A model generated the notes under the pieces. The model was not told where the DNA came from, made no database searches, and saw only the letters and a list, made by a program, of their open reading frames with translations. From IMG/VR virus record IMGVR_UViG_2740892017_000001: a stretch of DNA of 4,242 bases, one strand, 5' to 3'. The first letter of the stretch is position 1. Each line of letters begins with the position of its first letter. Shown here piece by piece: positions 1 through 4,242 of the stretch. The DNA comes from a virus. Taxonomy: Duplodnaviria > Heunggongvirae > Uroviricota > Caudoviricetes. A program made the position numbers and the translations under genes.

Positions 1-452
1 GCGATCTGTTCAAATGTTATTACCCGATCTCGATGGAAGTTATTGAGTGATCTCCTTTCATGAAAATACGCAAAAGTCGACACACGGCTGTAAGCCACAC
101 CCGCCATCGCATACGCGCTGAACCATTCATTCACGCGTACAGACGGCCCCGCCATCACGCTGAACCAGCGGTTACGCACGGAATCTTCATGCCAGCGGGT
201 ATCGCTGTAGCGCGTTTTTTGCTCATCCTCAGCATTGGCATAACTGAAGGACGTAATCAGCCCCAGCGCGTCCGTAAACTCATAACGGTATTTCACGTTA
301 ATCCCGTTCAGATCATCACTACCGGGAACGTTCGTCGAGGCATGGAGATACCCCGCGCTCAGCGTGGACTGATGTTCTGCTGCACTCGCTGGCGTAGCAG
401 CGGCGACCTGCCAGACTACTGCGGACAAAATAACAGCACATAATTTACGCAT
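1..452 (-). CDS. lom: Lom-like outer membrane protein (Ail/Lom/PagC family); the Lom-like part covers about 72..452, then the open frame continues with unrelated sequence to the window edge (probably truncated or fused, possibly a pseudogene)
   Basis: Minus-strand ATG at 452..450 with a GAGAGG Shine-Dalgarno (plus-strand complement at 458..463) 5 nt upstream. My manual translation gives MRKLCAVILSAVVWQVAAATPASAAEHQSTLSAGYLHASTNVPGSDDLNGINVKYRYEFTDALGLITSFSYANAEDEQKTRYSDTRWHEDSVRNRWFSVMAGPSVRVNEWFSAYAMAGVAYSRVSTF, a signal peptide plus the first beta-strands of an Ail/Lom-type barrel, closely matching the first ~127 aa of lambda Lom as I recall it. After codon 127 (about nt 72) the translation becomes AYFHERRSLNNFHRDRVITFEQI..., which does not resemble Lom or any beta-barrel strand pattern. 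There is no stop before the window edge. The supplied ORF track does not list this partial ORF; I derived it by hand. Confidence 0.8.
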   Translation of the reverse strand, partial: MRKLCAVILSAVVWQVAAATPASAAEHQSTLSAGYLHASTNVPGSDDLNGINVKYRYEFTDALGLITSFSYANAEDEQKTRYSDTRWHEDSVRNRWFSVMAGPSVRVNEWFSAYAMAGVAYSRVSTFAYFHERRSLNNFHRDRVITFEQI

Positions 453-471
453 AATTACCTCTCGCTTTTCT

Positions 472-503
472 GCAATAAAAAAGGCGCCATTTCTGGCGCC
501 CGT
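472..503 (-). terminator. Rho-independent terminator between J and lom
   Basis: On the minus strand: GGGCGCC-AGAAAT-GGCGCC followed directly by TTTTTTTATT. This is a perfect 6-7 bp GC stem with a 6-nt loop and a U-run, starting about 17 nt after the J stop codon. There is no T-run on the plus-strand side, so it is unidirectional for minus-strand transcripts. Confidence 0.75.
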
Positions 504-519
504 ATCTGGGTTATAAAAT

Positions 520-3500
520 TCAGCTAATCGTGATGCCTGCAGTGGCTTTCTTCATCACCACAACCAGCAAATCGCTGATACTTGCTGTGGGATACCAGTT
601 ATTTACCAGCCATGCTGACACCGAAAACTCCAGTGTCATGTGACCGTGACCGGCAGGCATATCAATAACACCACTGTAAATCAGCGTATTATCCAGCGCG
701 GTACGGTTATAAATTTCAGCACCGTTTTTCCGCACTATCAGACGGCATGAGGAGTAAATATCAGTATGCTCTTTCTCATGTTTAGCGCCGCTGAATGCCA
801 CCGCCGGAATAACAATCTGCCGGTCAAACGGCTGATCGTCATAAACCCTGACGGTAATGGTTCCTGATGGCCACCGCTCCGGTGCACGGGAGTCCCGGGG
901 GAAAGCTTTGCCCACTGTTTTAACGAGATCGCCTTCAATCTGGTTCGCGGACAATTTTCCCAGAACCCGACAGTTCTCGTTAATCGTGACGTTGTTGAGC
1001 GTCCCGGAGTTCGCATTCACGTTACCGCTGATATCGGCATTTTTCGCCGTCAGCCGCCCGTCCGGTGTCAGGGAAAATGCCGGAGGATTACCGCCGCTGG
1101 TAATGGTGGGAGCCGTCAGATATTTCAGGAACACTTCATTCATAAATATCTGATCGCCCTGACCAACAAACATCGGCTTTGTGTTGCCATTCGCAGGATT
1201 AATCATCGCAATCCTGTCTGCCGCCAGCAGCACCTGACTCTGCATTCCTGCTGGCGTATTCTCAATACCGGCACCGATACCCGCAATATAAAGGCGTCCG
1301 TCCTGCATCTGCTGCAGTTTCACGGCCCACATGCTGTTCAGGTTATTATTTGTATCAACCTGAACTTTCTGTATCTGCTGGATTGCCGCACTCTGATTTT
1401 CCAGTTTTTTATTGACGGTCTGCGTGATTTCATTGCTGACATTCGTAATGGACGTCCTGATTTCAGCCAGGTCCGGCGCAAGCTGACCGTTATCAATCTG
1501 CGTCCACAGCTCCTGGGCCAGATGTGTTTTCCCGATTTCTCCTTTGAAAAAATCCAGGTAACCTTCCGCATCATCGCTCGCCCGACCGACAGCCTCCACG
1601 AATGCCGATTTGCCAACAGTATTCACACTGCGGATATAAAAATAATAATCATGGCCCGGTTTGATATTGATACTGGCAGCTATCCAGTACAGCGCCGAGC
1701 CAAGATAGCGGGCTGCGGTTTCAACCTGCCTGATATCCGCAATCCGCTTTTCCGAGAACCAGAACTCAAACTGTACCGTCGGGTCATAAACGGCAAGATG
1801 TGGCGTTGCGGTTATCTGAAAATAGCCCGGCGTCAGCTCAATCCGCGACGGTGCTGCCGGTGCGGCAATCCGGAAGGTGGTGGTGGCAGGTTCACCCTGC
1901 TGGCCATAGCTGTTTATCGCCCGCACCGTCAGGGTGTATTCCCCGAGCGGCAGGCCGCTGAAACGGTGCTCCGTGTCTGCGGTGATGGCGGTGGTCACCA
2001 GTCTGGCATCCGTTCCCTTACCACTGGTCAGGCGCAGACTGAAGCGCACACCCTTCACCACCCGCGGCGTGTCCCATTTCGCCTGCGCCAGATACTGGCC
2101 GTCAGCTGCGCTCACCTCCACCGTCAGGTGCTGCACTGCCGGTGGGATGACGCTGTTCAGGGAACCTGACTGCGGCTCAAAGCGGGCACCGTTATCCACG
2201 ATGGCTTCTTTTTCCGGTACGTGCTGCACCGCCGTGATGGCAAAGGTGCCGTCCGTGTTTTCCCGGATGGAGACACAGCGGAACAGGCGACGGCGCAGTG
2301 ACGGCAGGGAGAGTCCCCACACCCCGTATGTCTCCACACCATCAGGCAGGGTACTGACCTGTATCCGGTCCGGCGCGGGGTGTGCGGTGATGTCCACACT
2401 CACCGGCTTACCGCTGCCGTTAATCAGGTTCACCGCCGATGTACCTGTCTCCGGCAGGGTAACCTCACGGTCCAGCGTCAGGGTGCGGGTGGCAGCATCA
2501 ATGGACAGGACACGTCCGCCGGTCAGGGTCCCGGCATAGTCATTATCACAGATTTCAATAATGTCACCGGGTGTGTGCCGCAGCCCCTGAGACCCGAGCG
2601 TGAAATCCACCGTCTGCGTTTCCAGCAGTTCGGTCTTTATCACCCACAGTCCGGCACGGTGGGCCTGACCGCGGCTGGTACAGCCGAACGCGTCCATCTT
2701 CAGCAGGTTGCGTCCGTAGCGCAGTATGGCTTCCGGGTCTTCCACCAGTTCCGTGGAGGTCTGCCAGCCGTTCTGCGGGTCGGTGTAATTCACCTCCACC
2801 GCCGTGTGCCGGTCCTTCAGGGCACTGAAGCTGTAGCGGAATCCCACGCCGTTATCATCCACCACCACATCGCTGTTGGTGTACGGCCACACCACATCCG
2901 ACGGGCGGTCCTGAACGAACGTCAGCGTCTGACCGTTCCATACCGGCATACAGCGCATCGCAGAGCAGAAATCACTGAGAACGTCCCACGCCTTACGCTG
3001 TTGTGCCAGGTACGCATTAAAGGTCATCCGCGGCTCGGTCCCCCCGAAACCATCCGGGACCGTCTGGTCGCAGTACTGCCCGATGGCATACAGCGCCCAC
3101 TTGTCCACATCCGCCGCCCCCAGACGTTTTCCCATGCCGTAGCGCGGGTGAGTCAGCATGTCCCACAGACACCAGGCCGGGTTGTTGCTGTATGCCGGTT
3201 TCAGACTGCCGTCCCAGATACCACTATACGTGCGTTTTTCCGGGTCATAGTTTGACGGCACCTGGATGATGCGACCGCGGATATGGTAGTTCACCGTCAT
3301 CTGCTGGCCGCCGAACTGCTCCGCATCCACCTGCAGCCCCACAATGGCCGTGTTCGGGTAGCACTGTTTCACATCGATGATTTCGGTGTATGACGACCAC
3401 AGCGTCTTATTCTGCAGCTGGTCCGTGGTGCTGTCCGCCGTCTCCCTGACCATCCGGATGTTAAAGGGCCGGGGAGGCAGATTATCCAGAATCACCGAGG

Positions 3501-3993
3501 CCAGGAACTGTGAGGTGGTCTTGCCGTTAATGGTGACGTCCTTTTCTGTCACCCAGTTACCGTTACGCTGTAACTGAATCAGCAGGCGGACGGATGCCGG
3601 GTTACGGTCACCCTTTGAGGTGGTCTCCACCAGTGACTGCACCCCGAAGGTAACCCGCAGGCGGTCAATGTTCGCGGACGTAATGGTGCGCGTCACCGGT
3701 TTTGCCTTCGTCACTTCCACGCCCAGTCCGGTTTCAGCTCCGGAGGACTCAAAGCCTTCCGGTGGTGTCTGCTCCTGCTCCCCGGCGCGCCAGACCGCCG
3801 TCACACCGTGTATCACGGGATTGCCGTCCGTGTCCGTCAGTGGGGTTTTGTTCACCAGAATACTCTGCAGTCCCTTCACCGGACCTTCTATCGGTCCCTC
3901 ACCAATCGCATCAATCACGCTCATCATCTGCGTGGATTTGAGATTATCCTTCGCCTCACGAGGCGTGTGTGCCTTACCGCCACCTTTTCCCAT
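520..3993 (-). CDS. J: Lambda J-like central tail fibre / host specificity protein (tail tip attachment protein), 1157 aa
   Basis: Single uninterrupted minus-strand ORF, ATG at 3993..3991, stop TGA at 522..520. It is preceded by a Shine-Dalgarno-like GGGGAAGG (plus-strand complement at 3998..4005) 4 nt upstream of the ATG. The N-terminus [22 protein letters not shown], and internal motifs such as [55 protein letters not shown] and [41 protein letters not shown], match my recollection of phage lambda gpJ (1132 aa) nearly residue for residue over most of the length. Size and position next to lom also match the lambda J-lom arrangement. Antisense ORFs inside it are GC-driven artefacts. Confidence 0.95.
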
Positions 3994-4090
3994 ACAGCCT
4001 TCCCCTGAATAAATTAACCGCCACTTGCCATTCCGTACAGAAGTCGGATATCCTTCGCCCGAAAAGCATGAAACACATTTCTGCCATGCT

Positions 4091-4131
4091 AAAGAGAAAC
4101 CCCGGTATCAGCAGATACCGGGGTTTTCTTT
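4091..4131. terminator. Strong GC-rich hairpin flanked by A-run and T-run; candidate bidirectional intrinsic terminator upstream of J
   Basis: Plus strand: AAAGAGAAA-CCCCGGTATC-AGCA-GATACCGGGG-TTTTCTTTC. This is a perfect 10-bp stem (4100..4109 pairing with 4114..4123) with a 4-nt loop. It is followed by a T-rich tract on the plus strand (4124..4131) and, read on the minus strand, by TTTCTCTTT (complement of 4091..4099). Confidence 0.55.
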
Positions 4132-4174
4132 CATGCCCACCGATAATCCTGTTGGTTAAAACCGGTAATGGTAA

Positions 4175-4209
4175 GCGTCAACGGAGCACCGTATTGACGC
4201 TTATTTATT
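4175..4209 (+). terminator. Second hairpin followed by a T-rich tract (weaker terminator-like structure)
   Basis: GCGTCAA(4175..4181) pairs with TTGACGC(4194..4200), and an inner CGG/CCG extension (4182..4184 with 4189..4191) encloses an AGCA loop. It is followed on the plus strand by TTATTTATT (4201..4209). On the minus strand it sits immediately after a TAA stop (4203..4201) but lacks an adjacent U-run. Function uncertain. Confidence 0.3.
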
Positions 4210-4242
4210 GGTGAGTACTACGTTCCATGGCAGGAGTTCGTC
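4201..4242 (-). CDS. Possible 3' end (last 13 codons, ...DELLPWNVVLTNK*) of an unidentified ORF entering from beyond the window
   Basis: Only one minus-strand frame is open from the window edge; it ends at TAA 4203..4201 and the other two frames hit stops within about 10 codons. The C-terminus does not match what I recall of lambda gpI (tail assembly protein I), but my recollection of gpI is unreliable. Far too short to identify. Confidence 0.25.
   Translation of the reverse strand, partial: DELLPWNVVLTNK

Follow-up and report, generated by a model that had tools for sequence, protein, structure and literature searches.

The IS21 and IS5376 prototypes of the IS21 family of insertion sequences end in CA-3' and carry multi-repeat terminal inverted repeats (L1/L2 and R1/R2), which are bound by IstA and of which two repeats are needed per end (PMC10122671). 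ISEc12, a member of the same family with a length of 2581 bp, codes for IstA, a DDE transposase, and IstB, an AAA+ helper, and resembles the prototypes in its istA-istB layout, its terminal CA-3' and its long imperfect inverted repeats made up of phased direct repeats. A published copy of ISEc12 lies in the T6SS gene tssM, where it is flanked by the 5-bp duplication ACTGC and is a fixed insertion in clade C of the ST131 lineage (PMC10711316). The Lom proteins of VT1-Sakai and phage lambda belong to the Ail/OmpX family, and members of the Ail/Lom group are recognized by a full-length profile match and by a C-terminal aromatic residue, the beta-signal of outer-membrane barrels. Copies of ISEc23, an element of the IS66 family, are 2532 bp long with the gene order tnpA-tnpB-tnpC, are flanked by 8-bp duplications and begin with the sequence also found at the right end of the stretch described below.

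The DNA analysed here (the window) is a stretch of 4,242 nucleotides from the IMG/VR virus record IMGVR_UViG_2740892017_000001 (Caudoviricetes). It contains the following features.

Positions 1..72, minus strand: terminal inverted repeat of ISEc12 (IS21 family) at its left, istA-proximal side, comprising the last 72 bp of the element and assigned by identity to ISEc12 ends.
Positions 1..452, minus strand: read-through fusion ORF of 127 Lom and 25 IS-encoded residues, from the translation.
Positions 73..77, no strand: one copy of the target-site duplication AAAGT, from comparison of JJ1887 with the intact gene.
Positions 73..452, minus strand: 5' two-thirds of lom, an Ail/Lom outer-membrane beta-barrel gene, as a pseudogene fragment (Pfam, identity to VT1-Sakai, PGAP).
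Positions 482..501, minus strand: terminator-like GC-rich hairpin (GGGCGCCAGAAATGGCGCC) and T run, located after the J stop and before the lom start (consensus scan only).
Positions 520..3993, minus strand: intact gene J, tail tip attachment protein of 1157 aa (ORF list; gpJ WP_000514710.1; Pfam GpJ domains).
Positions 3994..4170, no strand: first 177 nt of the non-coding I-J spacer, which is 342 nt long in JJ1887 (sequence).
Positions 4171..4242, minus strand: outermost 72 bp of ISEc23 (IS66 family), transposase-proximal end, assigned by identity to ISEc23 ends in many records.

The adjacency of J and lom fixes the context as that of a lambdoid prophage. The break in lom at the left end of the window almost certainly arose when ISEc12 transposed into lom in a remnant lambdoid prophage. 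The closest parallel is the tssM insertion of ST131 clade C, which involves the same element, a 5-bp duplication, the splitting of a gene into two pseudogene fragments and clonal inheritance across many genomes, and which differs in its target, a T6SS gene instead of the prophage gene lom (PMC10711316).

The lom fragment begins with the start codon at 452..450 and extends through codon 126 to the second base of codon 127. When nt 1-520 were compared with phage records by megablast, lom of VT1-Sakai was 99.8% identical at the DNA level over nt 73-520, and 126 of the 127 N-terminal residues are identical to VT1-Sakai Lom, the one difference being T60M. Codon 127 reads TTT in the window and TTC in the intact gene; its third base is derived from the IS, and F127 is retained by coincidence, because the base supplied there by the element is a T. 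The initial annotation had described the protein as Lom-like up to ...MAGVAYSRVSTF (residue 127, codon at nt 74..72) and as continuing in frame with AYFHERRSLNNFHRDRVITFEQI to the window edge, and the minus-strand translation from 452 to 3 gives the same reading. The segment AYFHERRSLNNFHRDRVITFEQI is translated IS DNA. The fusion ORF has 152 aa in total, leaves the window and reaches its stop two codons past the edge.

The Pfam profile Ail_Lom (PF06316) matches the window ORF with E = 3e-82, over profile positions 1-131 of 199 only, in agreement with the earlier estimate that about 70 residues of the barrel are missing. The C-terminal aromatic motif, also reported as absent, is indeed lacking, the fusion ORF ending in ...TFEQIAE; neither the full-length profile match nor the C-terminal aromatic residue of the Ail/Lom family is thus found in it. 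Compared with Lom of VT1-Sakai and lambda, the window copy is without the last 72 residues and has 25 IS-encoded residues instead. Because the profile match stops at position 131 of 199, the window contains a fragment of an Ail/Lom member and not a functional member, and Lom function would have been lost with the missing part. Given the way in which outer-membrane barrels assemble, the fusion product should be unable to form the 8-stranded barrel, and this copy of lom is accordingly best regarded as a pseudogene. PGAP labels the gene in JJ1887 an Ail/Lom pseudogene missing its C-terminus. The ORF at the window edge (150 codons) is properly labelled as a pseudogene fragment of lom joined to an IS end and should not be called a Lom variant.

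The position of the break follows from the behaviour of two classes of database matches. In the megablast search of nt 1-520 against phage records, the alignments with other lom genes begin at nt 73 (in some cases 72), and none extends into nt 1-71. With nt 1-144 as the query, lom genes match 73-144, while unrelated IS-bearing loci match 1-72 (1-73 or 1-75 by chance extension); matches spanning the junction were found in 342 of 5426 complete E. coli genomes. Since both classes of hits split at the same point, the break is placed at 72|73 and is a genuine one; the similarity is not lost there by accident. This falls within the range of about nt 70-75 proposed in the initial annotation, which had left the choice between deletion, recombination and insertion as the event joining lom to foreign DNA; insertion proved to be the correct option.

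The sequence of nt 1-72 is 100% identical to ISEc12 ends that lie inside repA, traG, psu, Ag43 and other loci on chromosomes and plasmids. In these unrelated contexts the matches end at the same boundary, nt 72-75, as is expected of a multicopy element. The tip of ISEc12 is at nt 72, reading 5'-TG on the minus strand and ...CA-3' on the plus strand, and three repeat units phased at 23 nt are present in nt 1-72, with GATCT at plus-strand nt 3, 26 and 49. An IS terminal repeat and a target-site duplication, for which a check had been recommended, were thus both located, the former as the ISEc12 end at nt 1-72 and the latter as AAAGT at nt 73-77. In JJ1887 the first IS gene is istA, whose start lies 121 nt outside the window and some 190 nt from the junction.

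It had been considered that a convergent flanking gene might end at nt 44-63, on account of plus-strand stop codons at 44..46, 48..50 and 61..63. All three are present as TGA codons; the proposed gene was rejected, as this sequence is IS terminal-repeat DNA and the only genes nearby are istA and istB, which are on the minus strand like lom.

A naturally short or frameshifted Lom variant without any foreign DNA would be compatible with an ORF that stays open to the window edge, and nothing else speaks for it. It is contradicted by the 100% identity of nt 1-72 to ISEc12 ends in plasmid tra and rep genes and at other unrelated loci, by the failure of nt 1-71 to match any lom gene, and by the location of the true C-terminal third beyond the IS. 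Such a variant is extremely improbable and is refuted by the IS identity of nt 1-72 together with the displaced C-terminal third. Intact Lom homologues sharing this C-terminus had been named as evidence that would count against a junction; no intact Lom bearing the tail ...AYFHERRSLNNFHRDRVITFEQIAE was seen, and the tail is IS DNA. Nor does Lom-like sequence continue past nt 72 in another frame, which had been named as the mark of a frameshift, the 3' part being situated, in complete genomes, 2.6 kb off, beyond the IS.

The window includes only 72 bp of the IS; for the source genome, the remainder of ISEc12 and of lom is predicted from complete genomes sharing the junction. The chromosome of E. 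coli JJ1887 is identical to window nt 1-4171. On the lom strand, PGAP annotates there, in this order, gpJ, an Ail/Lom pseudogene without its C-terminus, an ISEc12-family transposase IstA, an ISEc12-family helper ATPase IstB, an Ail/Lom pseudogene without its N-terminus, and a tail-fibre gene. IstA (513 aa) scores 310 bits on NCBIfam transpos_IS21 (cut-off 160), and IstB (248 aa) scores 270 bits on NCBIfam IS21_help_AAA (cut-off 200) and also matches Pfam IstB_IS21. The IS21 gene order of istA followed by istB is therefore present in the JJ1887 sequence contiguous with nt 1-72, outside the window, and both ORFs of the copy in lom are intact in JJ1887.

The tips of ISEc12 are TGCGTATT...AATACGCA, and in JJ1887 the arms of the imperfect inverted repeat reach about 65 bp inward. 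An AGATC core recurs every 23 nt, at 19, 42, 65 and 88 nt from the tip at the left end and at 18 and 41 nt at the right end, which gives the element the tip and the phased-repeat terminal inverted repeats of the IS21 family. With four phased units, three of them in the window, the left end of ISEc12 differs from the two repeats of the IS21 and IS5376 prototypes; these units are candidate binding sites of IstA. Two independent ISEc12 copies, located in psu and traG, agree with it in tips and in length and show 1-2 base differences.

The motif AAAGT is found on both sides of the IS in JJ1887, the second copy being at the far IS end and hence outside the window, and occurs once in the intact lom of VT1-Sakai (...GGAGAAAGTCGAC...). 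A short target-site duplication, 5 bp in the case of ISEc12 and single in the empty site, is a feature of the IS21 family and is present here; the ISEc12 copies in psu and traG have 5-bp duplications of their own, AACGG and CCTGG. Taken alone, this site is also compatible with a duplication of 4 bp, AAAG, and an IS tip bearing one additional T. That reading is ruled out by the other two copies, whose tips are TGCGTA...TACGCA with 5-bp duplications, and by the published tssM insertion (PMC10711316).

Removal in silico of the IS and one AAAGT restores a 199-aa Lom ending in ...GIGYRF, which covers Ail_Lom positions 1-199 of 199. Along its entire length, the reconstructed gene of 600 nt shows 100% identity with lom genes annotated as intact in other genomes, e.g. 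that of O104:H4 2011C-3493, and the alignment of the 199-aa protein with lambda Lom (solved chain 9wso_C), OmpX and Ail extends from one terminus to the other. The C-terminal ends are comparable, with GIGYRF in the reconstructed protein, GYKF in VT1-Sakai, and similar ends in lambda Lom and OmpX. A perfect empty site combined with the AAAGT duplication implies that the junction is the product of a simple transposition event. The insertion splits lom after codon 127, and the last 72 residues, including the C-terminal ...GYRF, are displaced by 2.6 kb.

The proposed course of events is as follows. ISEc12 would have inserted into lom at AAAGT, duplicating 5 bp; the remaining lom frame would then run through 25 IS codons before it stops. 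The source genome is expected to contain, beyond the window, istA, istB, the right IS end, the second AAAGT and the 3' third of lom. A single insertion event was presumably inherited by a large clonal group.

The far side of ISEc12 lies outside the window, several ISEc12 copies are present per genome record, and a private ISEc23 insertion that sets the source strain apart from all complete genomes is a sign of recent IS activity. In the light of these observations it may be asked whether the ISEc12 copy later mediated a deletion, an inversion or recombination with another ISEc12, so that its far side is no longer 3' lom and the junction would mark the breakpoint of a rearrangement. However, every junction genome inspected shows a simple insertion (JJ1887 by sequence, loci L007, L009 and L010 by their gene maps), the junction is carried by 342 complete genomes, and there is no sign of a rearrangement within the window. 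Such a secondary event is very unlikely, and a simple ISEc12 insertion in lom remains the preferred reading.

Both ends of the window reach exactly 72 nt into a multicopy IS (1-72 and 4171-4242). The window is probably a complete short-read contig of unique DNA situated between two repeats, which would fit a de Bruijn-graph k of 73, and the homology probably ends abruptly at the edge, and the window stops there, because the contig broke at the repeats. This resemblance to a short-read contig ending 72 nt into an IS on both sides might suggest a chimeric join of a lom contig with an IS contig. Against such an assembly artefact, the identical junction is present in 342 independently finished genomes, with the matching duplication at the other IS end, and many draft contigs (L011-L014) break at or just inside ISEc12, as a true insertion produces. 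An artefact is therefore a minimal probability and has already been effectively refuted, and the ISEc12 insertion is taken as genuine.

In the draft contigs L011-L014 the end lies 1, 127 or 206 nt inside this ISEc12, with L014 ending at the junction and L012 and L013 127 nt inside; these observations come from the 24 blocks with the longest contigs among the 4997 for the J protein, none of which was identical to the window. Contigs from short reads that end at a fixed distance inside an IS give an apparent abrupt loss of homology at their edges. The phage record ON470626.1 (vB_EcoS-783R2, 24 kb) ends inside the ISEc12 tip at window nt 9 and is probably a contig broken at ISEc12, not a complete phage genome.

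At the right end of the window, the ISEc23 tip GTAAGCG..., which is that of the known copies, begins at nt 4171, so that the I-J spacer is interrupted by the element. Divergence from JJ1887 sets in at nt 4172, nt 4171 being G in both by coincidence. Of the IS66 features, the tip is seen in the window, and the genes and 8-bp duplications are seen in other copies only; the 8-bp target-site duplication of this copy is predicted to be CGGTAATG at 4163-4170. The junction 4170|4171 is absent from all 5426 complete E. coli genomes, and the insertion is therefore private to the source strain or rare. In NZ_OZ039398 gene I of this prophage contains an ISEc23 copy, at a distance of about 240 bp (L006, 4431-6962), and in CP124420 (L009, 1-1385) an IS66-family element is located upstream of gene I. 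The prophage remnant has gathered several independent IS insertions, lom::ISEc12 among them.

The junction-positive strains listed include JJ1887, O25b:H4, uk_P46212 and ZH193, which we take to be ST131, and the carriers listed look like O25b:H4 / ST131. The insertion is an ordinary case of a prophage accessory gene disrupted by an IS. It is already known, as hundreds of complete E. coli genomes have it in their PGAP annotation; in the literature, no paper describing lom::ISEc12 specifically was found. The junction 72|73 is a clean clonal marker (342/5426) and could serve in lineage typing in the manner of the published tssM::ISEc12 junction. The in-frame read-through into the IS end creates an annotation pitfall: in some draft annotations (L010, 6542-7000; L013, 6542-7000) the 152-aa Lom'-IS fusion is called as an ordinary Ail_Lom gene.

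The lom promoter of phage lambda is active in lysogens. With the IS oriented as lom and istA only some 190 nt from the junction, read-through into istA is conceivable. It is a speculative and very unlikely idea that transcription from the lom promoter reads into the left end of ISEc12, or that the 152-aa Lom'-IS fusion is made with an effect on the envelope. With such read-through, the lom copy would be an unusually active source of ISEc12 transposase in its clone, which looks like ST131, the lineage with the fixed tssM::ISEc12 insertion. The terminator-like hairpin at 482-501 suggests that lom may be transcribed apart from the late tail operon.

Thousands of recorded assemblies contain the J protein. 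Upstream of J, the full I-J spacer occupies 11994-12335 of the JJ1887 locus, whereas genes I and J abut in phage lambda. A spacer hairpin at 4100-4123 has a 10-bp stem and T-rich runs on both strands, and a second hairpin with a T run is located beside gene I, at about 12297-12331 of the JJ1887 locus. Window nt 3980-4171 are 100% conserved in O157:H7 prophages also. Neither the window nor the uninterrupted JJ1887 spacer yielded more than sub-threshold chance matches in Rfam scans, and the preprint on Pas sRNAs offered no match attributable to the I-J spacer. An AgvB-type anti-sRNA in the spacer was rejected, as anti-sRNAs of this type are located at the PR' moron site (PMC4104026). Possible identities for the spacer are a pair of terminators and a small RNA or moron not yet described.

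In JJ1887 the prophage seems to be a remnant. In its tail-fibre region (locus 14700-16520), two oppositely oriented tail-fibre assembly genes are situated beside a truncated recombinase gene, and the region looks like a decayed invertible segment. At the other end of the locus (1-5115), the tape-measure gene is annotated as N-terminally truncated and adjoins a gene for a WbuC-family cupin. This truncation may be peculiar to JJ1887 or its annotation, since a tape-measure gene of 1080 aa is present in other assemblies with the same J (L007, L008 and L010-L014).
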